A stretch of 64,000 bases of DNA from a phage: assembly GCA_027262695.1 (NCBI GenBank), contig GCA_027262695.1_4722.1. One strand, given 5' to 3'. Made by a program: the position numbers and the translations under genes. Below the pieces are notes generated by a model. That model searched no databases. It saw only the letters and a list, made by a program, of their open reading frames with translations, and was not told the origin of the DNA. Shown in pieces: positions 25,462-64,000 of the stretch (its first letter is position 1; every line of letters begins with the position of its first letter).

Positions 25462-26346
25462 TTACGGTAGGATTTCTGCACCGGTTGGACCTGCCTTACG
25501 GGCTTCCAACGCACCAAGGTCGTATTTCAACGTTAACGTATCGTTGGTGGTGTAGAGGTTGTGGTACGTTGAAATCAGGTCGGTAACTTGAGCTCCTACG
25601 ATTTCGTTCATATCGAAGTTGGAACCTTGACCGTCATCAGCACGAACGATTTTATCGCCCGCAGAGACTATTCCAATTTCAGAAATAACCGCGTACTCTT
25701 CACCACCCTCGGTGAGCTTAGCCACATTGCGGTATTCGTTAATATCCCACGGTGTCCAAACCAGAGACACCTTGCAGCTGTAATCGTAATACTCACCTGT
25801 CGCCACTAAAATTCCGGTGGTCGGAATATCCGGTCGTGGCGGGTTGAGGTTCACATCGGTGGGATGCCATTCGATGGTCTGAGCAACACCATCAATGTAT
25901 TTGGTATAACGCATGGAGCGGACAACGTTATCGAAATCGATGCGGCGACCGTAATAACAGATGTACTTTTTACCGCTTTCCAGCGTCTCGATACGCCGTA
26001 ACCCAAATTTAGCACGTTCGTCCGTGGTTAAATCGTTACCCACTTCACGCATTACAAATGGCTTGATCTTCCACGGTGAAAGATTGCTTGCTTCATGGGC
26101 GATCGGCATCGAGGAAGGGATACCGTTCGCATTACGGATGAATTCATGACCCAGGTTACCGATACAGAAGTAACGTACGGCAGGATTACCTTCAGGGTAG
26201 ATCTTCGCTTGGATCTGAAGTTTTTCGTTCAGGGTGCTATGTTCTTCCCACGCGTGAGGAAGTCCCAACGTCAGGTTGGTTTGTACTTGACCACCGATAA
26301 TCGTACGAACGATACGATCGGTAGCACGGATTTGTGTAGAAGCCAT
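25462..26346 (-). CDS. hypothetical structural protein
   Basis: 294 aa ORF inside paralog cluster but not visibly related to it. Confidence 0.5.
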   Translation of the reverse strand: MASTQIRATDRIVRTIIGGQVQTNLTLGLPHAWEEHSTLNEKLQIQAKIYPEGNPAVRYFCIGNLGHEFIRNANGIPSSMPIAHEASNLSPWKIKPFVMREVGNDLTTDERAKFGLRRIETLESGKKYICYYGRRIDFDNVVRSMRYTKYIDGVAQTIEWHPTDVNLNPPRPDIPTTGILVATGEYYDYSCKVSLVWTPWDINEYRNVAKLTEGGEEYAVISEIGIVSAGDKIVRADDGQGSNFDMNEIVGAQVTDLISTYHNLYTTNDTLTLKYDLGALEARKAGPTGAEILP

Positions 26347-26362
26347 GTCTTTTCCTATTTAA

Positions 26363-27214
26363 TCAGTTATATTGCATCAACAGGATACCGCCGTAGTTCG
26401 TGCAGTAATCTTGACTTAGTGTAACGATAACCGCATTAGCGAATGCTGGGTTAACCGGATAGCCCTGGGCGATAAGGTCGGTTGTTTTACCTGTTGCGAG
26501 CACGGTTGCCCCATACAGGTTGTTTTCGTCCTCACGACCGTTATAAACCCAAGGGGTTGGTGCAACGTTGTTGAATAAACTCACCAGTGCGCTTAAGTTA
26601 CTACCAACCTTTAATCCAGCAAGATCGGAACGGATGGCTGTACAATCAATAGCGTAACTGTAAACCAATGCCTGGATACGATTTGCGGTGTAGTACGGGA
26701 AATTGAGGCCGGTCATCACCGTGGTCTTCATCATCCCTGCAATATCGCGTGCGCTATCGAGAAGATAAAATTTAACACTCCCTGTCCAGGCTAATCCGGT
26801 TGTTTTCAATTCTACGACATGAGGGAACGGATATTCATCACCTCGAACAATCGGAGAATCAACGCAGCTTTCCTGATCGATAACGATTCCGTACGTTGAT
26901 TGGATCAGCGGGATAAGATCGTGCGTGGTTTTAACACCGGCATCGATTGCAAGCTTCGGCTCCATTCCCAAGAAGAAATCCTGGATTGGAATACGATCGT
27001 ACCATACGTAGCTGCTTTCACGGTACTGCGCTGGTGTTACGGTTGCCGAAGGCGATACTTTAGCGCGGGTATTTCGATTATACGCGTGGTTTCCGTTTTC
27101 AGCAACATCCGTGATATCAAGTGCATCGAAGTTAAAGTCGAAGTCAGGATTGGCTACCTGAATAAGTTCGGCGACCAGTACTTTAGGACTTTTGTTTAAC
27201 AATTTCTGACTCAT
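26363..27214 (-). CDS. structural paralog family member
   Basis: 283 aa; YVWYDRIPIQDF and LAWTGSVKFYL. Confidence 0.55.
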   Translation of the reverse strand: MSQKLLNKSPKVLVAELIQVANPDFDFNFDALDITDVAENGNHAYNRNTRAKVSPSATVTPAQYRESSYVWYDRIPIQDFFLGMEPKLAIDAGVKTTHDLIPLIQSTYGIVIDQESCVDSPIVRGDEYPFPHVVELKTTGLAWTGSVKFYLLDSARDIAGMMKTTVMTGLNFPYYTANRIQALVYSYAIDCTAIRSDLAGLKVGSNLSALVSLFNNVAPTPWVYNGREDENNLYGATVLATGKTTDLIAQGYPVNPAFANAVIVTLSQDYCTNYGGILLMQYN

Positions 27215-27224
27215 TGTTTATTCC

Positions 27225-28160
27225 TTAGCCTTGTTCTTTCGGGGAACGGCCCTGAAGGCTTGCGGTATGCCCGTCGACATTATAATAGAAAATCAACGGA
27301 CCGCCAACAGCAGTACAGTAGTTTTCATCCAGACTGATTTCGATGCCGTATTGGTAACCTGCGCGAGCCGGGATACGTTCGCCTAACTCACCGTTGAAAT
27401 CCACCTTCGCGTTATACAGGTTGTATGGCGCTGTGTTATCGGTTAATACCCAACGATCGGTGGTCATTTCAGCCAGAAGGTCAGCAACCATCACATCGCT
27501 AACAACGGTACCTGTTACCAGCGAAGCCAAAAGCTCACCGTACTCAGACGTATCGCGACTGTAACTGTAGATTTCACCGCTTGCACGTACACCCTGTCCA
27601 AAGAACTTAAGACCGTCCAGCTCTTTGATCGCGATGATATCATCAAGATTCGGTACACGCGATTTCATCAGGATACGAACGCTCCCCGTCCAAGCCAGGC
27701 AACTAGATACGACGCGAAGCAACTGTCCGTTAACGGTATCCCAGTTAAGTTCATCGTTGACGATTTCTTCAGCTGTAAGGCCAAGACCGAAACGTTCCTT
27801 GATGATAGGCCAGATATCACGCATCTTGGTGGCGTCTGGCGCATCAATAAGAATAGGCGCTACGTTACGCAGATACGCGCCGATATTAATACGATCGTAA
27901 TACAGCGTCGTCGAACCTTCATAATCGTCTAACTCAGTAAGCTTAGCGGTTGCCGTTGCCGTAATCTGGGTGTCGCGCTCGTAGGCGCTTTGGTTAGTGG
28001 TTGGTGTTCCTAAAACCAATAATTCAGGTGTCAGGACGTGTTCTCCGTTCTGAGGTGGGTTATCGTGGTTGATAAGACCGTACACGAGATCGGATGAAGG
28101 TAAAGAGACGTCAACCGGGTAAAGTTCGGTGCCGTCAGTAGTTGTTACCGTATCACTCAC
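27225..28160 (-). CDS. structural paralog family member
   Basis: 311 aa; LYYDRINIGAYL and CLAWTGSVRILM. Confidence 0.55.
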   Translation of the reverse strand: MSDTVTTTDGTELYPVDVSLPSSDLVYGLINHDNPPQNGEHVLTPELLVLGTPTTNQSAYERDTQITATATAKLTELDDYEGSTTLYYDRINIGAYLRNVAPILIDAPDATKMRDIWPIIKERFGLGLTAEEIVNDELNWDTVNGQLLRVVSSCLAWTGSVRILMKSRVPNLDDIIAIKELDGLKFFGQGVRASGEIYSYSRDTSEYGELLASLVTGTVVSDVMVADLLAEMTTDRWVLTDNTAPYNLYNAKVDFNGELGERIPARAGYQYGIEISLDENYCTAVGGPLIFYYNVDGHTASLQGRSPKEQG

Positions 28161-39833: not shown

Positions 39834-40045
39834 TGATTATCCTCCCTCAAACAGACAACATACATGCATAATGCACGTCCCTTTTCTTGTTATCATCACA
39901 ACGACAGTCGACGGTTTCAGCATCATTCTTAGCGCGAGAACGACCTTACGTGTTGTCTATGCCTTTTTTCATTGAAGGCTTCTGTCACCTAGGTAATGTA
40001 AGCGTCAAATTTTTTCTAATCTAACCCAGCATAACAGCATAATAA

Positions 40046-40074
40046 CCTCCCTCAGCCCGTAAGGACCGAGGGAG
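40046..40074. terminator. hairpin CCTCCCTC...GAGGGAGG downstream of putative capsid gene
   Basis: 8-bp outer stem with inner CCGTAAGG. Confidence 0.45.
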
Positions 40075-40174
40075 GTTGACTTATGTATCACGGTGCCGGA
40101 TGAATGTCCGGTGTAATGAAACCATCCGCAACGTTGTTTTCAAGAACTTCATCCAACGAAGCAGCTCCGGTATT

Positions 40175-42397
40175 TCAGTTAGTCTGAACCGGCAGCTTGA
40201 TGTTTTCAGTGTAGACCTTACGCAGGTTCACAACGTTGATCAGACCCAGCAGCGGGCAGTTGTTCACGAAACGGCAGCGCGGCTGAACCATGGTTTCTTT
40301 AGAAACCTGACCGTTACGAGTAACCTGAGCAACGGATACCAGTTCCGGTACGTACAGGAACATACCGAAGGTCAGCGGATCCGGAGAACCCTGGATACCA
40401 CGAGACAGGGTCACGAAGATCTTGTCGCGCAACATGACGTTCGGGTTGTCTACAACCACGAAGTTGAAGCTTACACCCACGGTGCGGAAGTCACCGTCGG
40501 TCTGCAGGAACTGCGGGATGTAGTTGTCGGTTGCTACTACGCAACGCGGTTTCTCATCAGCGTTGGAAGACAGCAGCTGCAGAGCTGGCTGATAACCAGA
40601 CTCGGAGTACATGCGGTACGCCATTTCACGAATCACGTTCATGATCGCAGCGGATACTTCAGCACGACGTTCTGCAGTGGTGGTACCCTGAACGGATTTC
40701 TCCAGGTCCAGATCGATTTCTTCGAACCACGGACGAATCAGGTAACGACCGAAACCTTCGATCTGAATGTCACCGAACTGACGGAAGCGAGAAGTTGCAA
40801 CCGCTTTCAGGGCGTCTTTGTAGCTGAACAGTTTCTCAACCATCAGGTTGTCGAAACGTGCGTTAGCTGCTTGGATCAGAACATCCAGGTCAGCAGCGTT
40901 TTCTTCCCAATCCAGCGGACGAGGAATGGAGAACGGAGCCAGCAGGCCGATTGCGTAACGTTCTTGCTTCATGTTGAAGTCAAGATGTTTACCGCGTTCA
41001 CGACGGTTGCTGTTGTTACGACGGATACGCAGTTCGTAACCCACCAGTTTGAAGCTCAGGTCTTCAGCCAGATCTTTGAATTCCTGGCTCTTACGCGGTT
41101 GTTCGATGTTGTCCTGGTCAACCAGACGATACAGTTCAGCGGTAGCGCCATTAACACGCAGACCCGCTTTCTCTACGTTGGAAGAACCGTAAACTTCGAT
41201 CGCCAGCTGAGCAGCAGATTTCGCATCGATGATGTCCTGCAGCGCTTCAGCTTTCGCACCTTTAACGTCAACGGTGTTCTCATCAACGAAGATGGAGTGG
41301 GTGTCGAACGCCAGGGTCATTTTGCGGAAGTCGCCTTCCAGGGATTTCTGGAAACCGTTGGTGATCAGACCGGATACGTCGAACGGAACGTAAGAGGTTT
41401 TGCTGTGCTTGGTGGATTTAATTTCCACCAGGATTTTGGTCAGCGTGATCTGAGCATCCAGCGCGTCAGTGTTGTCGCTGTAACCGTTAGCCAGAATGCT
41501 ATCGTCTTCAGCGATACCGATCATGTCGATCAGTTTATCAACCGCCAGGTAAGACGTTTTGTAAGTAACGCCTTTGATTTCGATGTCGCGCGGAGCAACG
41601 ATGGTTTTATCAACGAAGTACTGCGCGTTAGCATCGTCAGCACGGTAGATCGGATGCAGATCGGTCACGTCGTTGGACAGAACGTCGTTGTACATGAACG
41701 CATCCAGCAGCGGACGACGTACCCAATCAGCCGGAGTACCATCACCGTTACGACGCAGGTGGTTGAACACCAGCGGACGACGGAAGGAAACGTCATAACC
41801 GATCTGGTTCGGAGCCAGAACGATGGTGTTGTACAGTTCGTTACCCATGCGGCTCAGACGAGACGCCTTCACGTTGAACACAACGGAGTACGGCATCATG
41901 TCACGCAGTTCTTTCTGGTCGTAGGACAGCTGAACCAGTTCTTCAGATTCACAACCGCAGGAATCCGCAGCCATCATGACGAAGTTAGCGCTGTCAACAT
42001 CACGGCCGGACGGCGAGGTGCTGATGTTCATGGAACGTGCTTGTTTAGCATATTCCACCGGGTTGCCATGTGCCAGCATGATCAGCGCTGCAGCGCGAGC
42101 CTGCTGTGCGTTCATGGTGAACAGCTGTTCTTCAATACGTTGCTTCTCTTCCGGAGTTGTGGTTTCGAAGCCCAGCATGGACAGAACCGGTTCTTCAGCT
42201 TTACGGATGTCGCTGCTGAAGCTCTTAACATCCATTTCGTTAACCAGTTTGTCCATGGATTTGAAATCAACCTTAGAAGCAGATTCCATAGACAGGAAGG
42301 TGTTTTCCAGACCTTTGTCTGCTGGTTTGCTACCATTAGCGGTCAGGAACTGGCGAGTGGCCGCGACCTGTTGGCTAAGAAGGGTTTTATCATTCAT
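40175..42397 (-). CDS. putative major capsid protein (large HK97-fold type, by size and codon usage)
   Basis: 740 aa; strongest host-optimal codon bias in window, producing a 774-codon stop-free antisense ORF; AAGGA RBS. Confidence 0.45.
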   Translation of the reverse strand: MNDKTLLSQQVAATRQFLTANGSKPADKGLENTFLSMESASKVDFKSMDKLVNEMDVKSFSSDIRKAEEPVLSMLGFETTTPEEKQRIEEQLFTMNAQQARAAALIMLAHGNPVEYAKQARSMNISTSPSGRDVDSANFVMMAADSCGCESEELVQLSYDQKELRDMMPYSVVFNVKASRLSRMGNELYNTIVLAPNQIGYDVSFRRPLVFNHLRRNGDGTPADWVRRPLLDAFMYNDVLSNDVTDLHPIYRADDANAQYFVDKTIVAPRDIEIKGVTYKTSYLAVDKLIDMIGIAEDDSILANGYSDNTDALDAQITLTKILVEIKSTKHSKTSYVPFDVSGLITNGFQKSLEGDFRKMTLAFDTHSIFVDENTVDVKGAKAEALQDIIDAKSAAQLAIEVYGSSNVEKAGLRVNGATAELYRLVDQDNIEQPRKSQEFKDLAEDLSFKLVGYELRIRRNNSNRRERGKHLDFNMKQERYAIGLLAPFSIPRPLDWEENAADLDVLIQAANARFDNLMVEKLFSYKDALKAVATSRFRQFGDIQIEGFGRYLIRPWFEEIDLDLEKSVQGTTTAERRAEVSAAIMNVIREMAYRMYSESGYQPALQLLSSNADEKPRCVVATDNYIPQFLQTDGDFRTVGVSFNFVVVDNPNVMLRDKIFVTLSRGIQGSPDPLTFGMFLYVPELVSVAQVTRNGQVSKETMVQPRCRFVNNCPLLGLINVVNLRKVYTENIKLPVQTN

Positions 42398-42546
42398 TGA
42401 AAGTATCCTTTACAGATTTAACTTATATAAGTCGGTCGATAGACCATAGCGTACACGCGTGCATGCGCCACTATAGTATCAGTAAACACTTACCGTTATT
42501 GAGGTTGTGATACAACACTAAAAATGCCGCATAACTTTTCCCTACG
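42398..42546 (-). promoter_or_regulatory. upstream region of putative capsid gene with TTATATAAGT motif
   Basis: Minus-strand TTATATAAGT about 25 nt upstream of start; late-promoter-like by analogy only. Confidence 0.25.
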
Positions 42547-43167
42547 TCACAAACGACGCAGGCGATAATGGATGGAACGATTGGTGCAATATGAACGGAA
42601 CAGCGGTAATTGCGCAACTTCCGCAAGACTCATATTAATTCGCAGATGTTCGATAACCGCGCTGTAGTTATCGGCGATACGATCGCTCAGTAACTCTTCT
42701 GCCAATAAAGGAAGACAATCGACAACGATGGCGATCACATCCTCATTAACATAACGCACCCGAACATTGAGTGGACGTTTGTCTGGGCCGTAAGTTGGAT
42801 CCGCCAAACGACGTTCAATATCGCGTGGATAGCTCGTCAGTAAATGGTAATAACCATTGTCATAACGATTGATGTACTCACACAGCACATCAACATTCTT
42901 CTCTGGCGGCAAACCTGTTTCGTCATAGTGATACGCAAACATACCACCAAGCAGGTTGTTAAGATGAACAGCCGCATTCGTTTGTTCGTGTTCTTTCGTA
43001 ATGAAGAAAGGCACGTTCTGAGCTGCGAAATAAAAACCTACATCATTGGGCGATAGTATGCCGAAAAGACTTTTAGGATCCAACAGCACCTGTAAGTCAT
43101 CACGCGCATTTCGCATAATCGCGTGTTCTACCCAATTCGGAACGACGAGATATCGGAGTTCCTTCAT
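42547..43167 (-). CDS. hypothetical protein
   Basis: 206 aa ORF divergent from 43207 gene. Confidence 0.5.
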   Translation of the reverse strand: MKELRYLVVPNWVEHAIMRNARDDLQVLLDPKSLFGILSPNDVGFYFAAQNVPFFITKEHEQTNAAVHLNNLLGGMFAYHYDETGLPPEKNVDVLCEYINRYDNGYYHLLTSYPRDIERRLADPTYGPDKRPLNVRVRYVNEDVIAIVVDCLPLLAEELLSDRIADNYSAVIEHLRINMSLAEVAQLPLFRSYCTNRSIHYRLRRL

Positions 43168-44817: not shown

Positions 44818-44843
44818 AACGCAAAAAAAAAAATCGTACGGTT

Positions 44844-44874
44844 CCCTCCTCCAACCCGGAAGGGAAGGAGGAGG
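44844..44874. terminator. hairpin CCCTCCTCC-AA-CCC-GGAA-GGG-AA-GGAGGAGGG, preceded by A11 run
   Basis: Canonical copy; A-run 44823-44833 gives a U-run after the hairpin for minus-strand transcripts. Confidence 0.6.
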
Positions 44875-44892
44875 GTTATGACCGTTATGGTG

Positions 44893-53797: not shown

Positions 53798-53885
53798 CGC
53801 AGATTCCTGTTTGAAAGATAAGATATCACATGATGGTCGACAGCATAAAGCCCACCCCGAAGGGCGGGCTGTTTATGCGTACGGA

Positions 53886-56800
53886 TTACTTGTAGGCACC
53901 GCAATGGGCTTTGATGAGGAAAAGCACCGCTTGCATCGGTTTATTGAACTGTTGCCATAACGTCAATGCCGGATGGAACAGCCAATCTTCCAGGCCAAGA
54001 ACAATACCGTAGTTAACGACATTATTAACATCATTCTCAACGTTGAGTTCACTGTCCAGGAATTTGTCGATGGAACGCAGGGTCTGCATGGCGTTATCAG
54101 CGATAAGCCAAGCTTCATGCGCTTCCCGAGCTGCACGCAGCAGTGCTTCCAGTTCGCTGGTGCTGGCAACCGGCAACTCTTCGCTGATGAGATCATCGGA
54201 CACCGTGAAGCTACGGTTGATACCGGTATAGATCCACTGCATCAGTTTCGCTGCTTCCTCGTTCGGGTTGTTGCGCGTTGTCGCATAGGTCGCGCTCATC
54301 TTCACGATATGCGTTTCACCAAGATACGCTTTGGACCCAACGCCTTTACGATCGCTGTCTTTCCACGGTTGTACGGCAGCAACCATAAGCTTATCCCATT
54401 TCTGAATAGGAATACGCTTCAGACCAACAACCGATCCGGCGGATGTTTCGGACTGGTTGCTCTTCCGCACGTCGCTGAGTTCACGATCGATAGCAACGAT
54501 TAATTCACGCGTCATGTTACCAAGCATTTTGATTTCACCCAACGCAGCGATGAGCTTCTTCACATCGGTAACAGGTTCACCACCGATGGTAAGATGACGG
54601 ATGAAACGTTTCAGAATAATCCGTTCTGCTGCTGGGTTGCCGCGACGCGCTTTAGCCAATGCTTGCTGCGTTTCGGCGAACAGCTTATCCCATGGAGCCG
54701 TAGCGGCGGTATAGTAACGGTGGTTGGTTTCAATCCAGTTACCGATACGGTTGACCGCGCTCTTAACGGTATCCATGAATCCTTCCATCGCAATTTCGGT
54801 AGCTTCGACGTTACCCTGGAAGTTATCAGGACCGATCTCACGTGCCGCTACCAGAATACCTTCCACCGCGCTCACCGCATGACGACCGATAGCCAGATTT
54901 CGCTGCGCTTCTTCAGCACGCTCAACGAATTCCACTACCGCAGGATCGTCAACGATTTCCGCCTCAGCAACAACACGAGTACCAGCATCGCCTTCCAGTG
55001 TCTCGATGGTGACAACCGGATCGTTTTCACCGGCAACATCCTGATACTCTTCCTGTTTGAGATCACCGTTATCAGCCGCTGCGACAGCGGTGAGTATACG
55101 AACGGTGACATCGCCCAGTTCTTTTGCAGCGAATCCGTAAACAGTACATGCGGTCGTTGCAAAGTTCATCAGGGTGCGTGTGCGCTGCGTGGTGTAACGT
55201 GCGCCTGATTCGTTTTCCACTTTGTCGAGATCACGGAGTAACTGCTCAGCCGTCTCCTGAAGTTGAGTAGCTGCTTTCAGGAGGTCTTCGTCGAACAGTT
55301 TTGTTGACGCATCGATCAGCATTTCAACGCTAACGTTGGACGGTACAGCATCATCCTGTTGTTTCATGGTGCTAAGTTCGTCACGGAACTCACGAATACC
55401 GTTTAACGCATCGTCGATGGAATACCCGAACGCTTTCACACCCGCCATTCCAAGAGCCGCTTTCATTTCACCCGGATGCTGAACTTGCTCGCCTTCCTTG
55501 CTGTTCTTTAACTCATCGAAATATTTCTTCGACGCGTCCGCAATACGTTTACTGTCTTTGACCGCGTTTACGATCTTATCGACAGATTTAGCATCGTTTG
55601 CGAGCAGAGTATCCAGTTTATTCCACTCAACGTCAACCTTCTTGGCATCGCTTGGTGGTGGAAGCAGTTTCATCACTGGTGTTGTGCGTTGTTCTTTGGT
55701 GAGCTTATCGGCCTTCTCATCGATTTTCTTTTTACTAACACCGAAGAGTTTTCTTAGGCGTGCCACGATTGCTTTTAAGAACTTCGCGACCGCTTCGTAA
55801 ACCGATTTCAGAATCTGTTTAAAGCGACCTGGCTGCTTTTCCCCGTCTTCCAGATTGAGATCGCTATTCAGTGCGACATCAAGCTGTTTGTACGATTCCA
55901 TGATGTATTCGTCTTTGATTTCAGGACGAATCTCGAAGCTTTCCATCGGACCTTCAGCCGGACGGAATTCCATTTTCAGTTCGCCTTGCAGAGTAGGGTC
56001 GACAATGGCGATCGCTTCACCCTGACCATCAGCGTTAAAGCGTTCAGCGTAACGAGTACGACGAACAATAACACTCTTATCCCCCTCAAGACGACGGACC
56101 ACCATGGTGCCAGGAATGTACGGTTGTTCTGTTTCGATGACGGTTACATCTGCCTCACCTTCGCCGAGAATAACCGATGCACGCTGTTCAACAACAGGAA
56201 CATCTAATACGCCACGTGCTTCCAGCTCTTGATGAATTTCGAACGACTCTTGTTTCAGATCTTCATCTTCTTCGTTTTCGTCTTCATCACCGTCACCTTT
56301 GGTGTCTTCATTACCCTCGGTGGTTTTGGTGTCGGTAGCATCAGCGTCGGCGTCTGTGTTGGTAGGTTCTTCGGACGCGGGTTCGGTGGTGCTATCCTCG
56401 GTGGACGTTTCGTCGGCGTTATCGACGTCAACATCACCTTGCAGCTCCGTTTCTTGAGCAACGGCGTCGGCTTTCTGCTCACCAGTATTGCCGTCATTAG
56501 CGTCGACAACAGGTTGTTCGTCAGCGACGGTATCTTCAACCTTTTCTACTTTCTCCACAACACGTTTAATCACGGTGACTTTGATGGGTTCTTCCGTCGT
56601 TTTGGTTTCTGGCGTCGCCTCGGCTACCTCAGCTGCTGTTTCAGCAACAGGTTCTGCTTTTTCCGGTTCGACGACATTGCCTTTAACACCTTCGGTGGTT
56701 TCTGCAGGTTGCGTCGCCTGTTCGATTTGTGCCGGATTGGTTGGATCGATGGCGTTAGCCGCATCCTGAATCTTGTTCTTCAGGTTGTCACGGTCAGCGT

Positions 56801-57260
56801 TAACGGTCGGATCATTGGTCACTTTCGGTGCCGGTGTTTCGGTCGGTGCGTTTGCTGGATATGGGTTCTTCGGCTCTTCACCAGGTGCGGTCGGTACGGC
56901 GATCAGCACGAACGGCTGCACGTCGTTACCGTCTTCCATGGTAACGCCACCGTTGCTCGGTGTGAAACGAATTCGTAAACTACCATCGATAGGACGGGTC
57001 ACAATAACAGCACGTACGACATCCTCGCCGTTCTCATCCGTGCTACGAATTACGCGAACGGCATCATCAACAGTAGCCCCTTCCTCGAGCGTATCTGATT
57101 CGATCGTCGCTTCGATGCTGTCTGGCCGTGCCGCTGTAGGTAATGCGATCACCTGCTCTTCTTTATCAGTAGAAAGCGTTGCTTTGACTTCGATCGGTGT
57201 ATCGCCGCTTTCCAGGTTAAGATGCGACTTACGCATCAGATCAGCTAACGATTTTTTCAT
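53886..57260 (-). CDS. large head-module protein with internal acidic low-complexity segment
   Basis: 1124 aa; DADADATDTKTTEGNEDTKGDGDEDENEEDEDLKQ around 56255-56540. Confidence 0.55.
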   Translation of the reverse strand: MKKSLADLMRKSHLNLESGDTPIEVKATLSTDKEEQVIALPTAARPDSIEATIESDTLEEGATVDDAVRVIRSTDENGEDVVRAVIVTRPIDGSLRIRFTPSNGGVTMEDGNDVQPFVLIAVPTAPGEEPKNPYPANAPTETPAPKVTNDPTVNADRDNLKNKIQDAANAIDPTNPAQIEQATQPAETTEGVKGNVVEPEKAEPVAETAAEVAEATPETKTTEEPIKVTVIKRVVEKVEKVEDTVADEQPVVDANDGNTGEQKADAVAQETELQGDVDVDNADETSTEDSTTEPASEEPTNTDADADATDTKTTEGNEDTKGDGDEDENEEDEDLKQESFEIHQELEARGVLDVPVVEQRASVILGEGEADVTVIETEQPYIPGTMVVRRLEGDKSVIVRRTRYAERFNADGQGEAIAIVDPTLQGELKMEFRPAEGPMESFEIRPEIKDEYIMESYKQLDVALNSDLNLEDGEKQPGRFKQILKSVYEAVAKFLKAIVARLRKLFGVSKKKIDEKADKLTKEQRTTPVMKLLPPPSDAKKVDVEWNKLDTLLANDAKSVDKIVNAVKDSKRIADASKKYFDELKNSKEGEQVQHPGEMKAALGMAGVKAFGYSIDDALNGIREFRDELSTMKQQDDAVPSNVSVEMLIDASTKLFDEDLLKAATQLQETAEQLLRDLDKVENESGARYTTQRTRTLMNFATTACTVYGFAAKELGDVTVRILTAVAAADNGDLKQEEYQDVAGENDPVVTIETLEGDAGTRVVAEAEIVDDPAVVEFVERAEEAQRNLAIGRHAVSAVEGILVAAREIGPDNFQGNVEATEIAMEGFMDTVKSAVNRIGNWIETNHRYYTAATAPWDKLFAETQQALAKARRGNPAAERIILKRFIRHLTIGGEPVTDVKKLIAALGEIKMLGNMTRELIVAIDRELSDVRKSNQSETSAGSVVGLKRIPIQKWDKLMVAAVQPWKDSDRKGVGSKAYLGETHIVKMSATYATTRNNPNEEAAKLMQWIYTGINRSFTVSDDLISEELPVASTSELEALLRAAREAHEAWLIADNAMQTLRSIDKFLDSELNVENDVNNVVNYGIVLGLEDWLFHPALTLWQQFNKPMQAVLFLIKAHCGAYK

Positions 57261-57275
57261 AAAGCGTTATTCCTC

Positions 57276-58382
57276 TTAAAAGTAATATTTCAGCGCCTCG
57301 CGAGAGACATCAAGCATAGCCGCTGTTGAATTCGTAAAGAACTCGGCATAGCCCACAAGCGGCACCTTGATCCACGCGGTATACGCTGTAAGGTATCGAG
57401 AAAGGGCTACCATAGCATCATCAGAAGCAGTAGCAACTGACAACTGACCTTGTTGACGATAAACGTCGTTAAGTTTTGCTTGTAGATTCCCTGCGATTTC
57501 GAGTAACTCGTTGGCGTACTTTTTACGATGGTAACTAACCAGCAAATCAACACCCGTATTTACAGACTCGAGTAGCACACCAACTTGTTCTAATGTTGGC
57601 ATTGTAACCACCATATCCCGTTCAACTGACGGTATATCCTGGACTTCAAACCGTGCGGATTGAATGGCGAGGGACTGTTGAATTGAACCGGAACCTGAGG
57701 CGGTAACCTGATCGAGTCGCAGCATACGGTTGCCCAGTAACGTTACGTTGGCGAGTTTCGATTCGTTCAGCGTACTGTAGACTTTATGCAATAACGTATA
57801 CGCATCACGGTTAATCACATCGATTAATGCGGTATCCGTCTGTTTTAAGATAATGTCGAGCGCTCTATCTAACGTATTAGCGAACTGCTTGAAATCATCA
57901 CGGAACGACGAAGACAAGAGATATTCAGCGATCGCTAAATTCTGCTTGTATAACGTATTCCCGGTGGTGAAATCGAACCCAAAACTGTTCCCATACCGTA
58001 GGTGTGGGGCCAGCGTCGACGAAGCTTCGAAGCTTTGCGCGATAGGTTTACGACCAACGGCTTTTGTGTAATGGCGGCGGATGTTACTGAGTTCGAGTTG
58101 TAGTGCGCGACTACGATCGATAAACCGTGCGATAAACGCGGTAATGTTCCGCAACGTTGTCCAGATTGCATCGATGATGGCTTTGATGATTTTCATCGCA
58201 AGCTGATTGTACGATTCCATCGTGAGGAGATCAGCACTTTCTGTGGTATAACTGGTTGCCAGCATCCCGCCCGCTTGCTGATAAATAAGCTGGTGAATTT
58301 GTCGTTGCGTTGCTGTCTCTGGTACAGGTAATGTCTTTAACAAGCTTAACGCTTGAATCTGTCCGTCATAGGTCTGCAGCAT
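57276..58382 (-). CDS. hypothetical protein
   Basis: Start at ATG 58382 (GAGGA 8 nt upstream); ORF track extends to 58445. Confidence 0.5.
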   Translation of the reverse strand: MLQTYDGQIQALSLLKTLPVPETATQRQIHQLIYQQAGGMLATSYTTESADLLTMESYNQLAMKIIKAIIDAIWTTLRNITAFIARFIDRSRALQLELSNIRRHYTKAVGRKPIAQSFEASSTLAPHLRYGNSFGFDFTTGNTLYKQNLAIAEYLLSSSFRDDFKQFANTLDRALDIILKQTDTALIDVINRDAYTLLHKVYSTLNESKLANVTLLGNRMLRLDQVTASGSGSIQQSLAIQSARFEVQDIPSVERDMVVTMPTLEQVGVLLESVNTGVDLLVSYHRKKYANELLEIAGNLQAKLNDVYRQQGQLSVATASDDAMVALSRYLTAYTAWIKVPLVGYAEFFTNSTAAMLDVSREALKYYF

Positions 58383-59667
58383 TGCTGGTTTCCTCAAGTT
58401 CGAGATGCGCGTCAAGATAATCATTAAGACCATCGATGACGTCACAGACAGTTAACAGGAATCGGGCAAAAGCAACCGCCTGGAAGCCGACGACGTTACG
58501 CGCGATACCCACACGTTGAACGATAGCGGATGCTGCGGTATCGTTGTTGTCCATCTGTTGTAGCAAACGTTCATACGGTTGAATCCATTCGTCCTGGTCG
58601 GCAAGGCTTGCTTCAAGACAACGTTTAAATTCCAACTGTCGTAGCGTAGACCATAACGTACTTAATGCGCTGATGATCGCGTTGGTTCCGTCGATAACAT
58701 CGTTTAACGGCAAGAAACGGAATCCGTCTTTTGCTGATTGGAAAGGTACAGCTTCCCATACAACACTGAACTGCGTTCCTGATGCGTCTTCGATGTTGTG
58801 TAATTTAAGATAGGAAGCACCAACAGGTACGTCAACGACCAGATCGTCTGTTCCGGTAGGCGTTAACGGCTTCTCGCATAACGCCTCGTTGATGACCTCG
58901 AGAATATTCTCCCAACAGGCCTCGTTTTCCGCAGCGATACCTTCTTTGTTATCCGCTGATGGTGCTTTTAGTAGCTGCATTAATAACGGATCAAGTTGAC
59001 GATGCCATGCTGCGAGGATTCCTGTGTTCGTTACGATGTTTTCTGCGGTTTGTCGTAAATCAGCAATACTGCTTACCGCACCGCCTTTCGGATGAAGATA
59101 TCGCCAGTTGTAGGGAAAGTTCTCCCAGAATGCGTTATCTTCATCGACGTCGTATTCGGAAATATTTTTCAACGCAGCCGCTTTCTTTAATAGCGGCTTC
59201 ACCTGACGAACGAATCGACGATAACAACGATTACAGATATCGATCGCATAGCGATACAATTCGTTCATGTAAAGCCATAACGCCCGGGTTGCTTCTTTCG
59301 CGGTTTTGTCAAAACTTTCCATGTTTAGGCTCATTCCGTTGGAAGTTTCCTCTTCCATCCCATCGATGATCTGATTGGGATCCATTCCCATCCCAGCCGC
59401 TGCGGTTGAAGCGATATGTTTAATCGTGCTGATATCACGTTCTTCAACTTCGGTCATGTTAGGGACAATATCTAACCGGAGTTTATTTAATGTTTGAAGG
59501 TGCTGTTCACCTTCCTTCATGACGGCGTTCGTTTCATCGAGTGAGTGAAGCTGATTTTCGATATTACCGACATCGAGAATGTTTCCAGCGATACCGAATG
59601 ATTCTACAGGTTCATCATCTATCCCTTGAAACAACGCGGTCATGGGTTGTTGCAACACGTTTTCCAT
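58366..59667 (-). CDS. putative internal head / ejection-type protein, paralog family member
   Basis: 433 aa; IASTAAAGMGMDPNQ and RALWLYMNEL resemble 59823 and 61125 genes. Confidence 0.5.
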   Translation of the reverse strand: MENVLQQPMTALFQGIDDEPVESFGIAGNILDVGNIENQLHSLDETNAVMKEGEQHLQTLNKLRLDIVPNMTEVEERDISTIKHIASTAAAGMGMDPNQIIDGMEEETSNGMSLNMESFDKTAKEATRALWLYMNELYRYAIDICNRCYRRFVRQVKPLLKKAAALKNISEYDVDEDNAFWENFPYNWRYLHPKGGAVSSIADLRQTAENIVTNTGILAAWHRQLDPLLMQLLKAPSADNKEGIAAENEACWENILEVINEALCEKPLTPTGTDDLVVDVPVGASYLKLHNIEDASGTQFSVVWEAVPFQSAKDGFRFLPLNDVIDGTNAIISALSTLWSTLRQLEFKRCLEASLADQDEWIQPYERLLQQMDNNDTAASAIVQRVGIARNVVGFQAVAFARFLLTVCDVIDGLNDYLDAHLELEETSNAADL

Positions 59668-59782
59668 TTAGGACTCCTACGTAGGAAAGATCATGGTGGG
59701 TGATCATGTCCACCATTGTGCGTGGTATGAAGCGTGGCTTCATACCCAAGTCAAAAGATAACCGGTCATCAACACCATAAAA

Positions 59783-59814
59783 CCCTCCTCCAACCCATTA
59801 GGGAAGGAGGAGGG
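59783..59814. terminator. hairpin CCCTCCTCC-AA-CCC-ATTA-GGG-AA-GGAGGAGGG
   Basis: Family member between same-strand genes. Confidence 0.55.
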
Positions 59815-59822
59815 TGCTTATC

Positions 59823-61115
59823 TTATTTTGCTTTCTCGGTTACCGCGTCGAAGTATTTTGCGGCAGCGAAGACAGCTTCGGCGTACTGGCGCACCGACAG
59901 ACGAAGTATTTTCGTGGAGATGGTCATGCCTTGACGTGCCATTTCTGAAACCGCTGCGATGTACGGACGTATGGTCTCTCGATCCACTTCCGGCATTCTA
60001 TCGAGTATATCACCCCATTTTGATTTAATTTTCATGCCAACTAATTTCGCGGTGCGTTCTAGCGTATTTGCCAGCATTTCAACTTCGCTATGATAAGTCG
60101 GCGGTACCTTATAAAACACCCCGAGGTATCCTGTCAAGCCGGTTTCCAGATCCTTCTCATTTTTGAAAATGTTCGGATCGGTAATATCACCTGAACTGAC
60201 GTCGGCTAGTTCGATAGTAATCTGTTTCACCAATTCACAAGCCTTTATTGGGTCGCTTTCTTTTACGACCGCATCAATGCCTTTAACGACGATATGTTTC
60301 CCGGCACTTTCAGGCGCATCAAAACGTTTCAGCGAGACCCTGATGGCTTCGAGGTATTTTACCAGAATAGCATCAAGGGAAGAGATATTTGTCAGTTTTT
60401 CCAGTTCACCGTTCAGGATGGCGATATCGCTCAGGAAATCACTGGAGGAGACCGCCATCTGCGCAAGCTGGCCAATATGCACACCCATGATGTACGCGTT
60501 TGCTGATTTCGCGTTCGGGAACATCGTGAGCATGTTGTCGGTAGGCTTCTCGATTTGCTTCAGTTTACGTTTGCCGTCCTTCACGTCATCTGCAATATCG
60601 TGGATTTTATTGTAAGCATACATCAGATTCTTGAACAACATCTTGAAGAATTTGAAAAGCGCCTCGGCGATATTAGCGATAATAATCCATACCGCATAGA
60701 GCGCTTGCGCCGCACGTTCCTTAAACCCTTCCAGCACGATGGCTTGCCCTTCGACTAACTTGTCGTTAGCCTGGAACATGTCTTCATCAGACATACCCAG
60801 ATTAGCTGCCGATGTTGATGCGATTTGGCGGATAAGCGCAACGTCGCTGGCGCGGGCTTCTGTGATCGTTGGTGCAATTACATAGGCGGTGTCTTCCAAT
60901 GTTGCTGCAGTGCGCAAAGCGATTTCAGCCAGTTCGCTGTTCTCATCGATGCTGTCGTCGGTGTGACGAATCACCAGCTCAACTTCATCTTCCTCAATTT
61001 CTGCGTTAGGATCTTGTTGCTCGGGTGAAATCGATGCAAGAACATCTTCAGCGCTGAGTAAGGCGAGTTCGAAAGCGTTTTTATTGATGTTATCAAAAAG
61101 AGAAATCCGGGCCAT
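59823..61115 (-). CDS. putative internal head / ejection-type protein, paralog family member
   Basis: 430 aa; APTITEARASDVALIRQIASTSAANLGM and VLEGFKERAAQAL align with 61125 gene. Confidence 0.55.
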   Translation of the reverse strand: MARISLFDNINKNAFELALLSAEDVLASISPEQQDPNAEIEEDEVELVIRHTDDSIDENSELAEIALRTAATLEDTAYVIAPTITEARASDVALIRQIASTSAANLGMSDEDMFQANDKLVEGQAIVLEGFKERAAQALYAVWIIIANIAEALFKFFKMLFKNLMYAYNKIHDIADDVKDGKRKLKQIEKPTDNMLTMFPNAKSANAYIMGVHIGQLAQMAVSSSDFLSDIAILNGELEKLTNISSLDAILVKYLEAIRVSLKRFDAPESAGKHIVVKGIDAVVKESDPIKACELVKQITIELADVSSGDITDPNIFKNEKDLETGLTGYLGVFYKVPPTYHSEVEMLANTLERTAKLVGMKIKSKWGDILDRMPEVDRETIRPYIAAVSEMARQGMTISTKILRLSVRQYAEAVFAAAKYFDAVTEKAK

Positions 61116-61124
61116 ATGGGTTCC

Positions 61125-62468
61125 TTAACCTTTAGTGTAGGCTTTAACGAGGGTGTTAATAAAAGAAGTTAGTGCACGAAGGTACTGATAAGCGAATTGG
61201 TTTTCAATACGTTGCTCTTTACTGCAAAGCATGATCGCCCGTTTCACCAGTTTAGGATATATTTCAACGTACGGTTTATAACTGTCGTCGTATTGCTGCG
61301 TATCGAAATTTTTCATGGCTTCATACTGCAGCTTTTCCATCTGACGAACACGAGCACGATCGAAGATCTTGGAGAACGCACGTCCGCGTTGGGTGATTGC
61401 AATCAGATCTTTCGCTAATGAAAGCGGTTTAACGCTACGGAAATCATCCGGTGTGGGTAACGTGTAGTTTTCTGGATCGCTATTCCATTCGGTCACCGCA
61501 TCTTCAACCACAACATCCAATTTCAGATAATTTTCAATCGCAGCAAGAACGTTGTCTTTTGCTGCATTGAATTCTTTTAAGAACACAGCAGCATTAACAT
61601 AACGAATACGTTTACCAGAAACCGCCGGTGTAACTACGTCACTCCCGTCGACGGAACCTCTGTTCTCCAACGCGGTTTTCAATGTATCCAGAAACGACAT
61701 GTAGTCCACAGGAAGTTGGTCAACACGATCTAAACGAAAATCGAATGTCTTCACACCAAGACCGGTGGTAAGGTCGTAACGTGCACCGCCCGCCATGATT
61801 CGGTTGTAGTTCTCAAGGTTCTTCTTAATTTCGTCAACACCACCGACATGATTGCGATTGGAGAAGAGGATACGCCAACCGGCTTTAAACGGCACGGTAA
61901 CCGTTTCTTCTTTACCTTTCGGAAGGTTTTCTAGCGCTTTGATCGCATTCTGGAAATTGCGGGTTTCATCATAGATGATCCGTGTTAATCCTTCCAGGAC
62001 AGCAGCCAGTTGCAGAACAATATCAACAATGATATCCCAGATCTTTTTCAACGCTCGAACTACGGTGTCTTTGAACCCTTCAACAACCAACGCTTCGCCA
62101 ACGGCGATGTTGTCGGTAGGACGAAGCATCGCATCGGAAGGTAAACCTAAAGCAATTGAAGCGGATTCTTGAACGTTACGTACCAGTGCAACGTCACTGT
62201 AATTAGCCGTCTCAATCGTTGGTGCAACATCAAAACTGATTTCTCGTAATGCTTCAACAGCGGGGAAAGCACGATCGAGTGCCTCCTCATGTTCATCGAT
62301 GTTCGCTAAACGGAGTTCAACGCCATCGGCGTCAATGACTTCGGTGGTAGGTTCTACGGCAAGCGCCTCGGCAACGATGGGATCCTTCTCAAAAGCTTCA
62401 AGGCTGATATCACCTTGTGTAGCAAATAGTGGTATACGTACCATGTGATGTCTCCAGTAATAATTCAA
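61125..62468 (-). CDS. putative internal head / ejection-type protein, paralog family member
   Basis: 447 aa; APTIETANYSDVALVRNVQESASIALGL and VVEGFKDTVVRAL. Confidence 0.55.
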   Translation of the reverse strand: MNYYWRHHMVRIPLFATQGDISLEAFEKDPIVAEALAVEPTTEVIDADGVELRLANIDEHEEALDRAFPAVEALREISFDVAPTIETANYSDVALVRNVQESASIALGLPSDAMLRPTDNIAVGEALVVEGFKDTVVRALKKIWDIIVDIVLQLAAVLEGLTRIIYDETRNFQNAIKALENLPKGKEETVTVPFKAGWRILFSNRNHVGGVDEIKKNLENYNRIMAGGARYDLTTGLGVKTFDFRLDRVDQLPVDYMSFLDTLKTALENRGSVDGSDVVTPAVSGKRIRYVNAAVFLKEFNAAKDNVLAAIENYLKLDVVVEDAVTEWNSDPENYTLPTPDDFRSVKPLSLAKDLIAITQRGRAFSKIFDRARVRQMEKLQYEAMKNFDTQQYDDSYKPYVEIYPKLVKRAIMLCSKEQRIENQFAYQYLRALTSFINTLVKAYTKG

Positions 62469-62492
62469 AAGATAAATCAGAGCAGCATAGAA

Positions 62493-62523
62493 CCCTCTCC
62501 CTTCCCTGACGGGTTGGGAGAGG
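62493..62523. terminator. hairpin family member in inverted orientation (CCCTCTCCC-TT-CCC-TGAC-GGG-TTG-GGAGAGGG)
   Basis: Reverse complement gives the AA-CCC-loop-GGG-AA core. Confidence 0.5.
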
Positions 62524-62546
62524 GAATATGTCAGTTTGCTAACTGA

Positions 62547-63878
62547 TTATTTCTGTGCTGCGTCAGCCGGTTTTTCAGCCGCCTGGCCGCCGTACTCTTT
62601 CAGCATTTTAGCAACGCCGTCCAGTACTGCGTTACCCGCCTGAACACCGTACTTCATCAGGCTAACCTGCGGGTTGATGTAGCAAGAACGTGCGTCTTTC
62701 AGTGCAGACAGCACAGTTTTAACACGCTGTTTCTCTTGAGCAGAAACTTCGCCTTTCTTAGCCAGTTCAGCTTCCATATCGTCGCCGAATTTAACAGCGT
62801 CTTTGAAGCCCTGGGATTTCTTACCGATGTTACCTTTCGCAGCCAGCAGTTTATCGGCCAGCGCTTCAACGCTGTTGATCACCGCAGCCATCTGGTTCGG
62901 GGACAGTACATCGGCTTCCTGTTCCATCACGGTGATTGCGTTATTGCCGCGTTCCCAGGTCACTTTACCGTCGGTGGTTTTGAATCCCCAACCGTTCGGA
63001 CCTTTCACATCAGCGATCGCAGGCGCGTTCAGTTTGTCGGTGTACTCAGTATGTGATTTAGACTTAACGAGTTCAACGAATTTATCCGCACGATCGTCAG
63101 CCGCCTTCATTGCTTTCTCGAAGGTATCTGCGATTTTGCTTGATGCACCAGCGATATCGATATCGCCAATATAACCGGTAACAGTGGTGCCCAGTTTAAC
63201 TTTCGCGTTCTTCGGAGAGCCTTTACGTTTGGCGATCATTTCTTTCAGTTTAGCCGCACGTGCTTTCAGCTTGGTTGCACCGTCGAAGATACGATCGATG
63301 AACTTCACGAAGTTGTCCCAGGTGGATTTCAGGAAGTTCTTAATTGCAGTCCACAGTTTCTGCCACCATTTCTGTTCTTCCAGGAAGATCATGTTGGTTG
63401 CATCATAACGGGAAGCGGAACCGCCGAAGCTTTCGAAGGAAGGCATGGTTTCCGGCAGTTTGAAGCCGATAGTACCACACAGACGTTTCAGATTACGCAT
63501 GTGTTCTTGCGCGGTCTGTGCAGACATACCACCGTCTTTCAGATAGCTTTCGGTCGCAACAACGGTTTCCGTCATTTCGTCCATGGCTTCGTCCATGGCT
63601 TCAGCGGTTTCGTCGTCTTTTGCGATTTCGATAACAACAGCATCAACCTGCTCGATGTCACCACGGACTTCGATAGCCAGTTCGGTTTCAGCAGCGGTGT
63701 CTTCAGCGATTTCAGCACGTTCGGTCAGTTCAGCCACAACGGTTTCATCGCCTGCAGCAGCATCGGCTGCCGGTTCTGCTTCAACGGTTGCCGCAGCTTC
63801 CGGATCGATCTCAGCAGCCAGTTGAACCAGCTGTGCGTTAGATGGATTTGCGACAAGACGATCAAAAATAGAAGGCAT
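62547..63878 (-). CDS. hypothetical head-module protein, possibly distant member of the 58366-62468 family
   Basis: 443 aa; highly expressed-type codons; acidic Ala/Glu-rich N-terminus. Confidence 0.5.
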   Translation of the reverse strand: MPSIFDRLVANPSNAQLVQLAAEIDPEAAATVEAEPAADAAAGDETVVAELTERAEIAEDTAAETELAIEVRGDIEQVDAVVIEIAKDDETAEAMDEAMDEMTETVVATESYLKDGGMSAQTAQEHMRNLKRLCGTIGFKLPETMPSFESFGGSASRYDATNMIFLEEQKWWQKLWTAIKNFLKSTWDNFVKFIDRIFDGATKLKARAAKLKEMIAKRKGSPKNAKVKLGTTVTGYIGDIDIAGASSKIADTFEKAMKAADDRADKFVELVKSKSHTEYTDKLNAPAIADVKGPNGWGFKTTDGKVTWERGNNAITVMEQEADVLSPNQMAAVINSVEALADKLLAAKGNIGKKSQGFKDAVKFGDDMEAELAKKGEVSAQEKQRVKTVLSALKDARSCYINPQVSLMKYGVQAGNAVLDGVAKMLKEYGGQAAEKPADAAQK

Positions 63879-63903
63879 AATTTGTTTCCTTTACAATAAA
63901 TTG

Positions 63904-63946
63904 CACATTAGCTAATGCGGCTTAAGCAAGCTGTAATCTTGCTTAA
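63904..63946. promoter_or_regulatory. two adjacent palindromes upstream of 62547-63878
   Basis: CATTAGCTAATG (perfect 12-bp) then TTAAGCAAG-ctgtaat-CTTGCTTAA, 25-70 bp upstream of the minus-strand start. Confidence 0.35.
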
Positions 63947-64000
63947 AAGCCCTTAAAACCCGGTGCCATAGGTTGCCCAAACACCGCATTTAAAGTACAT

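Follow-up and report, generated by a model that had tools for sequence, protein, structure and literature searches.

A stretch of phage DNA of 64,000 nucleotides (nt), contig GCA_027262695.1_4722.1 of GenBank assembly GCA_027262695.1 and hereafter called the window, carries six tandem genes on its minus strand, which were labelled D, C, B, A, E and F in their order and are assigned here to PF12699 (phiKZ_IP), the Pfam family of phiKZ-like phage internal head proteins. Escherichia phage vB_EcoM_Goslar has a direct orthologue of each (gp53-gp58), and these are arranged and oriented alike. D (62547-63878) encodes a PF12699 protein of 443 amino acids (aa) orthologous to Goslar gp58 (87% aa identity). 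It is followed by C (61125-62444; 439 aa), another PF12699 protein and the orthologue of gp57 (72%), by B (59823-61115; 430 aa), a protein with the predicted PF12699 fold and the orthologue of gp56 (65%), and by A (58366-59667; 433 aa), placed in the family by profiles and the orthologue of gp55 (95%). The last two are E (57276-58382; 368 aa), a PF12699 protein orthologous to gp54 (98%), and F (53886-57260; 1124 aa), the orthologue of gp53 (94%) in the position of phiKZ gp97. The list of open reading frames (ORFs) extends C to 62468 with a TTG start; the ATG at 62444 is most likely the true start, because it has a ribosome-binding site (GGAGA, 6 nt upstream) and agrees with the Goslar annotation (438 aa there, 439 aa here). 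E starts with the ATG at 58382, has a GAGGA ribosome-binding site and overlaps the end of A. The initial annotation of this DNA, made from the letters alone, had flagged A, B, C and D as a cluster of three to four paralogous genes. All four ORFs are present on the minus strand where it placed them and match Goslar gp55, gp56, gp57 and gp58, and the paralogy stood, whereas the count had to be raised to six when E and F were added by profile search.

Positions 57000-64000 of the window share 90.9% nucleotide identity, over 69% of the length, with Goslar (NC_048170, 58234-65213), and a nucleotide search of a collection of 50,697 phage genomes gave no match to this region besides Goslar. Gene order and orientation in the region equal those of Goslar gp048-gp058. 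The 740-aa ORF at 40175-42397 (minus strand), earlier proposed as a capsid candidate, scored 722 bits for PF25620, shares 98% identity with Goslar gp41 and was identified as the major capsid protein, of phiKZ type. The proposed 972-aa portal (30659-33577) has 97% identity to Goslar gp36, the portal of the cryo-electron microscopy (cryoEM) model. Because of the Goslar gene order, the phiKZ-type capsid protein and the Goslar-like portal, we take the window to be part of a Goslar-like chimallivirus, i.e. a nucleus-forming jumbo phage. The six genes correspond to the PF12699 internal head protein cluster already known from such a phage, and the closest relative has been studied by experiment; a new kind of system is not present in the window.

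Pairwise comparison linked only some of the six proteins. B and C were clearly similar (blastp: 34% identity over 153 aa, E = 1e-17; phmmer: 5e-17), as had been claimed for them, and A matched B at E = 2e-8 and C at about 1e-7 (phmmer: 3e-7). The similarity among A, B and C was restricted to the N-terminal 150-220 residues, where the conserved blocks APTIxE and SDVALIR are located. The motifs listed in the initial annotation (APTI[TE]E, SDVAL[IV]R and [VL][VL]EGFK[ED]) were all recovered in the alignment, and its grading of A and D as sharing weaker features was fair: D had no significant pairwise match to A, B or C, the best being E = 0.16. With blastp and phmmer, D, E and F were not linked to A, B and C, and no window protein was linked to phiKZ. 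Iterated searches with hidden Markov models (HMMs) over related loci stayed within orthogroups, except that phiKZ gp93-gp95 recruited D, and an iterated HMM started from A, B and C closed on the family of these three. Since both pairwise searches and iterated HMMs failed across groups, profile-profile comparison was needed.

Two of the proteins, D (69.9 bits) and C (28.6 bits), reached the Pfam gathering score of PF12699 (27 bits), and D also matched phrog_5750 (‘internal head protein’) in PHROGs. E gave a nearly full-length match under the threshold (21.2 bits, E = 1.9e-4), and the C-terminal 365 aa of F, searched alone, fell just under it (25.9 bits, E = 7e-6). A profile of A, B and C searched with HMMER against 1.84 billion representative proteins retrieved only 31 at E ≤ 1e-3. 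In the alignment built from 27 of these representatives together with A, B and C, 22 of the 30 sequences carried PF12699 (best E = 8e-48). An external profile was then made from 21 distant PF12699-positive proteins and searched against the 113 window ORFs of at least 100 aa. Only six ORFs matched, with 25-67 bits and E-values of 5e-8 to 9e-21: B (67 bits), C (56), A (42; 41.8 bits, E = 4e-13), D (35.5), E (32) and F (25). The next best ORF had E = 0.95. When the same profile was compared by hhalign, probabilities were 99.3% for A/B/C (386 columns), 98.3% for E, 98.2% for D and 97.8% for residues 776-1124 of F, over 311-386 columns. With shallow alignments of orthologues, hhalign placed the D orthogroup with the phiKZ gp92-gp95 family at 98.9%; results were weak for E and F, with 65.8% for E against phiKZ gp96. 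Searched against the PDB, the family profile matched the phiKZ gp93 sequence in 8y6v at E = 1e-7.

These searches also bear on the idea that the likeness among the four flagged ORFs is compositional, a product of long amphipathic helices, and reflects no gene family. The absence of significant pairwise similarity between A/B/C and D, E and F speaks for it, as does the many spurious fold matches that helical proteins yield. It does not account for a B-C match of E = 1e-17 with conservation at the level of motifs, for the more than seven orders of magnitude that separate the six genes from the other window ORFs with the external profile, for full-length hhalign matches at 98-99%, or for the position-by-position synteny with phiKZ described below. 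The external-profile search and the hhalign comparison refute this explanation, and we give it practically no credence.

The AlphaFold 2 (AF2) model of B was an elongated helical bundle with a small beta insert (mean predicted local distance difference test, pLDDT, 71.9; predicted template modelling score, pTM, 0.69). It gave 76 matches in BFVD at E ≤ 1e-3. The top matches with a name were internal head or virion structural proteins of the phiKZ-like phages PhiEaH1, Ea35-70, 201phi2-1, PhiPA3, Psa21, Noxifer and RP12, aligned over the full length with E = 1e-8 to 1e-5 and TM-scores of 0.5-0.6; many others were without a name or uncharacterized. Foldseek of the B model against the PDB found nothing significant. 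Weak matches to the pore-forming toxins ClyA, Hbl and Smh recurred (Foldseek E = 0.07-0.4, TM-score about 0.2); they were followed as a lead to membrane activity and rejected, because residues about 266-310 of B, which make up its small beta insert, are charged rather than hydrophobic. The family profile also had weak matches to syntaxin, SNAP25 and haemagglutinin HA2, which were taken as coiled-coil noise. A tblastn search of B and D against the 50,697 phage genomes returned only Goslar and one weak match to a Pseudomonas phage, which indicates that the family evolves too fast for this route, and a search for related loci with a gp91 alignment recovered nine only.

F differs from the other five in its length and appears to be composite. 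Its residues 1-429 are very acidic, of low complexity and rich in E, D, T and P, and gave nothing in hhalign. Residues 776-1124 form a clear PF12699 module. The intervening segment, residues 430-775, matched the PF12699-positive profile at 82.3% in hhalign and has its own ‘IMESYKQ’ motif; it is probably a second, degenerate PF12699 module, so that the six genes probably hold seven such modules. The AF2 model of residues 430-1124 was too poor for use (pLDDT 44.8), and the two-module idea is therefore argued from hhalign. Variation of F among Goslar-like phages is concentrated in the middle module. As a separate observation, more than 100 near-identical gp53-type proteins, homologues of the window segment 53889-55973, were found on contigs of ~236-250 kb. 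Many of these contigs belong, by their labels, to assemblies of isolates of Salmonella enterica, E. coli, Shigella or Enterobacter, suggesting that Goslar-like phages are common passengers in enterobacterial sequencing data.

The gene order of the window (gp91-like, D, C, B, A, E, F, a 127-aa gene, gp98-like and gp99-like; the latter two PF24214/PF24215) is that of phiKZ gp91-gp99 one for one and in the same direction, and likewise that of Goslar gp59-gp50. The Goslar flanks are equal: gp59 (gp91-like) lies upstream, and the genes for the tail terminator (gp51) and the stopper (gp50) follow downstream. D takes the position of phiKZ gp92 and E that of gp96; in the literature, Goslar gp58 is named as the homologue of phiKZ gp93. 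The earlier claim of a jumbo-phage internal head or ejection protein family is thus upheld by both the PF12699 assignment and the synteny with phiKZ gp92-gp97, which belong to the same Pfam family and lie in the same place between gp91 and gp98/99. The two clusters also share a mutually similar trio (gp93/94/95 in phiKZ; C/B/A here), divergent flanking members and a long last protein (gp97; F). They differ in that the identity is too low for pairwise detection, and in that phiKZ has extra members elsewhere (gp153, gp162, gp163), whereas no further member was found within the 64 kb of the window. In SPN3US there are two family members in the same location, gp53 and gp54 (Paralog family A, high-copy ejection proteins), which are PF12699 paralogues that follow a gp91-like gene (PMC5694885). 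A distant metagenomic relative has genes of 449, 461, 98, 453, 387 and 1666 aa in the same order, with a single gene in place of B and C, and B/C therefore appear to be a lineage-specific duplication.

All six Goslar orthologues, gp53-gp58, were detected in CsCl-purified virions by liquid chromatography-tandem mass spectrometry with 31-69% coverage, as described in a bioRxiv preprint of April 2026 on the Goslar cryoEM structure (10.64898/2026.04.21.720040). Absence from purified virions had been named beforehand as the observation that would speak against a head protein assignment, and the reverse was found in Goslar. Copies per virion, with an uncertainty of about 50%, were estimated at ~2150 for gp58, ~330 for gp53, ~70 for gp54, ~50 for gp55, ~60 for gp56 and ~50 for gp57; AlphaFold 3 models gave the six a common PF12699 fold, and they were described as syntenic with phiKZ gp92-97 (10.64898/2026.04.21.720040). 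Goslar thus has one dominant member, whereas in phiKZ several are present at 100-200 copies. Gp58 fused to green fluorescent protein (gp58-GFP) was packaged into Goslar, injected, and stayed with the early-infection (EPI) vesicle. In phiKZ, gp92, 93, 94, 95, 97 and 163 are injected. Judged by the 65-98% identity to Goslar and the conserved N-terminal regions, the six proteins are expected in the virions of the present phage as well.

The virion data decide against a role as prohead scaffold or core proteins that would act in assembly only, be degraded by the protease and be expelled before DNA packaging. Long acidic N-terminal regions with conserved Glu sites would suit such proteins, and giant phages are without an identified scaffold of the T4 gp22 type; the presence of all six orthologues in mature, purified Goslar virions at the coverage given above, with both C- and N-terminal peptides, contradicts this explanation and makes it very improbable.

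A second alternative concerns what the packaged proteins do. What Krylov in 1984 and Wu et al. in 2012 are said to have described as the inner body is reportedly an ordered cylindrical protein body visible within the DNA-filled capsid. In the classical form of this explanation, the six proteins would build an ordered cylindrical spool with the DNA wound around it, organizing packaging and ejection instead of acting on the host. Mass spectrometry and bubblegram imaging placed the homologues phiKZ gp93, gp95 and gp97 in the inner body, ~2150 copies of the D orthologue have mass enough for a large internal structure, and the predicted mature domain of D is basic (net +11). Such a body has been reported for phiKZ and was not seen in Goslar: neither the micrographs nor the asymmetric map contained inner-body density, symmetry expansion brought out none, and recent phiKZ maps are likewise without it (10.64898/2026.04.21.720040). 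Furthermore, gp58 leaves the capsid with the DNA, and phiKZ orf92, 93, 96, 162 and 163 tolerate transposon insertions. We consider an ordered spool unlikely, and PF12699 membership does not establish an inner body here. Of the earlier proposal of a packaged inner body or ejected proteins, packaging of the Goslar orthologues and injection of gp58 were borne out, and the ordered inner body was not found in Goslar. Given that an ordered inner body has not been observed in this lineage and that processing is unproven, the six are more safely called ‘packaged and ejected head proteins’.

The alignment of the 30 family members had a single invariant residue besides the start Met, namely the Glu of the [VL][VL]EGFK motif. 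The corresponding sites are VLE129|GFKE in B, VVE122|GFKD in C, NME117|SFDK in A, TME56|SYNQ in E and AME826|GFMD in F. A second motif, xxES[FY]xG, lies 10-20 residues upstream of the invariant Glu in most members and reads SFE149|SFGG in D, which is the predicted maturation site of that protein. Motifs of the S/A/G-X-E type are found at SFE149 in D and AME826 in F, and near the N-termini at SAE23 in B, SLE16 in C and AAE23 in D. When cut at the predicted sites, precursors of 368-1124 residues would yield C-terminal parts of 294 (D), 317 (C), 301 (B), 316 (A), 312 (E) and 298 (F) residues. Uniform mature domains of 294-317 aa (~33 kDa) would thus result from a cut at the invariant Glu; this is a prediction, unproven for Goslar. 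Ahead of the sites the sequences are acidic, with net charges of -17 to -26 (-82 for the 826 residues of F and -3 for E), and the C-terminal parts are neutral to basic, except that of A. The retained domain of ~300 residues is mostly helical and opens with a strongly amphipathic, Trp-containing helix. In D, C, B, A and E this helix is one of the protein's three most amphipathic 18-mers, and in D, C and A it heads the list.

The predicted cuts can be compared with mapped ones. The propeptides of SPN3US gp53 and gp54 were mapped to 125 and 124 residues (PMC5694885). In our alignment, residue 125 of gp53 is the invariant Glu (AAQE125|GW) and residue 124 of gp54 is the Glu of the upstream motif (VAQE124|SYG). 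The mature SPN3US proteins, of 31 kDa, match the 32-35 kDa predicted for the window proteins; both members are present at more than 600 copies, and P3 is Ala (A-x-E), compared with V, N or T in A, B, C and E of the window. In phiKZ, the gp175 protease cleaves the PF12699 proteins at S/A/G-X-E, a motif refined to LSxE, and most of these proteins are injected; gp92-96 have S-x-E at the column of the invariant Glu. Once phiKZ gp93 has been cut at Glu13, its new N-terminus (residues 14-84) sits wedged against the inner wall of the capsid, and the helical domain is freed. In T4, the internal proteins IPI, IPII and IPIII and Alt carry a capsid-targeting sequence, and gp21 cuts it at L/I-x-E. They follow the same logic, with an N-terminal targeting peptide, a prohead-protease cut after Glu and ejection with the DNA, and the V-L-E, V-V-E and N-M-E sites of the window look closer to the T4 motif, with L/I at P3, than to that of phiKZ. 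The T4 proteins are small and basic, without a sequence or fold relationship to the present ones, and their propeptides measure 10-20 residues, compared with 56-150 here (826 in F).

A homologue of a prohead protease was sought in the neighbourhood, as had been suggested earlier, and none was found anywhere in the 64-kb window. Goslar gp212 is 30% identical to the phiKZ protease gp175 (E = 9e-25); its gene adjoins that of a virion RNA polymerase beta subunit and lies ~140 kb away. In the Goslar map, the capsid protein is without its first 157 residues. Processing by a prohead protease is thus plausible in this lineage, though unproven.

Several points weigh against the reading of the cluster as packaged, processed and ejected family members, and they concern each of its parts. 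As to family membership, A and B had no Pfam match even at E ≤ 10 and no PHROG match. Because the members of the external profile had been found with the A/B/C query, this profile is independent evidence for D, E and F only, so that the placement of A and B in PF12699 is argued from profiles, the predicted fold of B and paralogy with C. As to cleavage, the aligned column in D holds Asp instead of Glu, and the P3 residues before the invariant Glu in A, B, C and E (N, V, V and T) depart from the published S/A/G. The peptide table of Goslar virions, consulted for peptides beginning with A to E, includes gp58 peptides 55-72 and 115-131 at an intensity like that of a C-terminal peptide, and gp53 peptides 84-96 and 202-220 at high intensity. 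The N-terminal parts of these two proteins are therefore retained in the virion, cut or not. A tryptic peptide spanning the predicted gp53 site was also present, with low score and low intensity, and cleavage of gp53 there is thus at most partial. Uncut chains would give spanning peptides such as LPETMPSFESFGGSASR, LVEGQAIVLEGFK and VEVGEALVVEGFK. In addition, the SPN3US authors noted that the processing of ejection proteins varies between giant phages (PMC5694885). As to ejection, it was seen for Goslar gp58 alone among the six orthologues and would be extended to A, B, C, E and F by analogy. The experimental data all come from Goslar, to which B and C are only 65% and 72% identical, and the missing inner-body density described above belongs on the same side.

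On balance, an operon of six PF12699 genes for head-internal proteins that are packaged, processed and ejected is the best explanation of the cluster as a whole, and we regard it as highly probable. Paralogy, family and synteny were observed directly, and virion presence and gp58 injection are taken from the Goslar literature; where the proteins are cut, whether the N-terminal part anchors them and how the domains act after injection are matters of inference. In the model that we propose, the N-terminal part would target the protein to the assembling prohead and anchor it there. A prohead protease of the S80 type, the homologue of gp212 encoded outside the window, would cut at or near the invariant Glu, probably partially. 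The helical domains would remain within the filled capsid alongside the DNA and, at infection, would be ejected with the genome into the EPI vesicle. D would be the bulk component, with thousands of copies, C, B, A and E would be low-copy variants, and F would be intermediate.

The low copy numbers also admit a different location for four of the proteins. A, B, C and E could be minor capsid proteins at the inner face of the eleven vertices beside the vertex-binding complex, one copy per asymmetric unit around each vertex, that stay in the capsid, leaving D as the only ejected cargo. The copy estimates of ~50-70 are close to 55 or 60, as expected from such an arrangement, and are ~50% uncertain. 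The Goslar map has unassigned helical-bundle density around the vertex complex that was called ‘reminiscent of the PF12699 fold’, in phiKZ both gp93 and gp162 have parts wedged against the inner wall of the capsid, and the homologues of the vertex-complex proteins gp91 and gp119 flank the region. The vertex-binding-complex protein gp86 of phiKZ (gp65 in Goslar) has the same order of N-terminal motifs. Yet gp86 was not recovered by Foldseek of the B model against the PDB, and hhalign of gp86 with the family gave only 19%. The mature domains of B and C are only 52-77% identical between phages that share ~98% identity in their capsid proteins, which would be odd for a fixed structural contact, and the low-copy phiKZ paralogues gp94 and gp163 are injected. 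We find it doubtful that the four proteins stay at the vertices, and return to packaged and ejected proteins as the preferred reading.

The variation of the cluster among close relatives was assessed from aa identities between the window and Goslar plus three other Goslar-like genomes. Neighbouring structural proteins were 98-99% identical, E 97-98%, A 95%, F 83-94%, D 85-89%, C 71-73% and B 63-67%. Compared with Goslar, the C-terminal domains of B and C are deeply divergent alleles, and D and F have one internal divergent patch each. At the nucleotide level, the C-terminal half of C (about 62070-61180) and that of B (about 60730-59830) were only 55-65% identical to Goslar, with lesser dips to about 70% in D (63270-62821) and F (55630-55190), in a region that is otherwise 95-100% identical. 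The synonymous divergence (dS) was saturated at ~2 in B and C, against 0.1-0.35 in A, E and F, and the ratio of nonsynonymous to synonymous divergence (dN/dS) was near 0.1. Rapid adaptive evolution of B and C by positive selection was considered and rejected, as a dN/dS near 0.1 shows purifying selection. Saturated dS together with purifying selection indicates old functional alleles joined by recombination rather than recent adaptive change. At least 8 allele classes of B were found among 33 orthologues, with 52-77% identity in the mature domain and 82-95% in the first 165 residues. No mention of the divergence of B and C alleles was found in the literature naming PF12699.

This combination of saturated dS and a dN/dS near 0.1 resembles long-lived alleles under host-dependent selection, as in receptor-binding or anti-defence genes, and the allele pattern fits a host-facing role of the mature domains without proving one. 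A tentative extension of the model, which we put forward as a possibility of rather modest probability, is that the low-copy paralogues are modular cargo and not redundant filler of an inner body. In such cargo a conserved N-terminal region for anchoring and processing would be joined to an exchangeable helical domain of ~300 residues, and alleles would be swapped by recombination between phages with 95-99% identity in the neighbouring structural genes. The paralogues would perhaps be docked at the eleven vertices, up to the moment of ejection, via a fold related to gp86. If this is true, the mature domains would act after injection on variable host targets, or would be ejected factors sensed by host immunity.

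In chimallivirus heads, few components other than the shell are more abundant than the PF12699 proteins, and these enter the first infection compartment with the genome. Two papers of 2024-2026 treat their role as an open question, a ‘key unsolved mystery’ (one of these being 10.64898/2026.04.21.720040). What the present analysis adds is a set of precise predicted cleavage sites that would give uniform domains of ~33 kDa, and evidence for a probable second, degenerate PF12699 module in the gp53-type protein. Near-isogenic phages that differ strongly only in the mature domains of the gp56- and gp57-type proteins furthermore offer a natural experiment on the partners of these domains.

The intergenic regions of the cluster contain several terminator-like hairpins on the minus strand. 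A GC-rich one lies between D and C (62483-62524; arms CCCTCTCCC and GGGAGAGGG, then TTCTATGCTG). Another is found between B and A (59773-59814; CCCTCCTCC and GGAGGAGGG, then TTTTATGGTG), and a third after F (53841-53870; AGCCCGCCC and GGGTGGGCT, then TTATGCTG); Goslar has annotated terminators at the places equivalent to these two. The unit of a GC-rich hairpin and T(T/C)TATG(C/G)TG recurs 3' of D, B, F, the major capsid gene (about 40027-40080, minus strand) and a DnaB-like helicase gene (about 44840-44892, plus strand). Two hairpin units are also followed by the exact 11-mer TTATCTTTTGA, which is not significant alone. The hairpin at 62483-62524 was not listed by a generic terminator scan, and scans for sigma-70 promoters and generic terminators gave fewer sites than in shuffled sequence, as expected because the phage has its own RNA polymerases. 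The units may be terminators, or terminator-plus-promoter units, of the phage's own transcription system. If the hairpins terminate, D would be transcribed alone, C and B would form a second unit and A, E and F a third. A separate unit for D would fit its far higher copy number.

The upstream border of the cluster is formed by the homologue of phiKZ gp91 and Goslar gp59, a vertex-binding-complex protein, whose gene is cut by the window edge so that only its 3' end (last 17 codons; 63943-64000, minus strand) is included, with a C-terminus ending in LNAVFGQPMAPGFKGF before the stop codon. By gene order and size, a gene at 42547-43167 (minus strand) appears to be the homologue of another vertex-binding-complex protein, Goslar gp42 / phiKZ gp119, and this gp119-like gene and the gp91-like gene flank the capsid and internal-protein region. 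Antisense to the capsid gene and nearly coextensive with it, there is an unusually long ORF of 774 aa with a TTG start (40076-42400, plus strand), presumably a shadow ORF.

Elsewhere in the window, 24541-28160 holds four serial genes of ~290 aa, three with DUF7941 and one with DUF7208, equal to Goslar gp31-gp34; DUF7941 is a chimallivirus-specific family described as forming long filaments at the baseplate (10.64898/2026.04.21.720040). A 682-aa protein (15220-17268, minus strand), equal to Goslar gp025, has a C-terminal Peptidase_S74 intramolecular-chaperone domain, which is typical of tail fibres and spikes. An 839-aa protein (1969-4488, minus strand) gave a weak match to SMC_N (38.6 bits, under the cutoff of 40). 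Outside the part of the genome that the window covers, Goslar (NC_048170) has annotated group I introns at 169269-169645 and 211817-212245, both adjoining RNA polymerase beta-subunit genes, and an HNH endonuclease is annotated beside one of the two.

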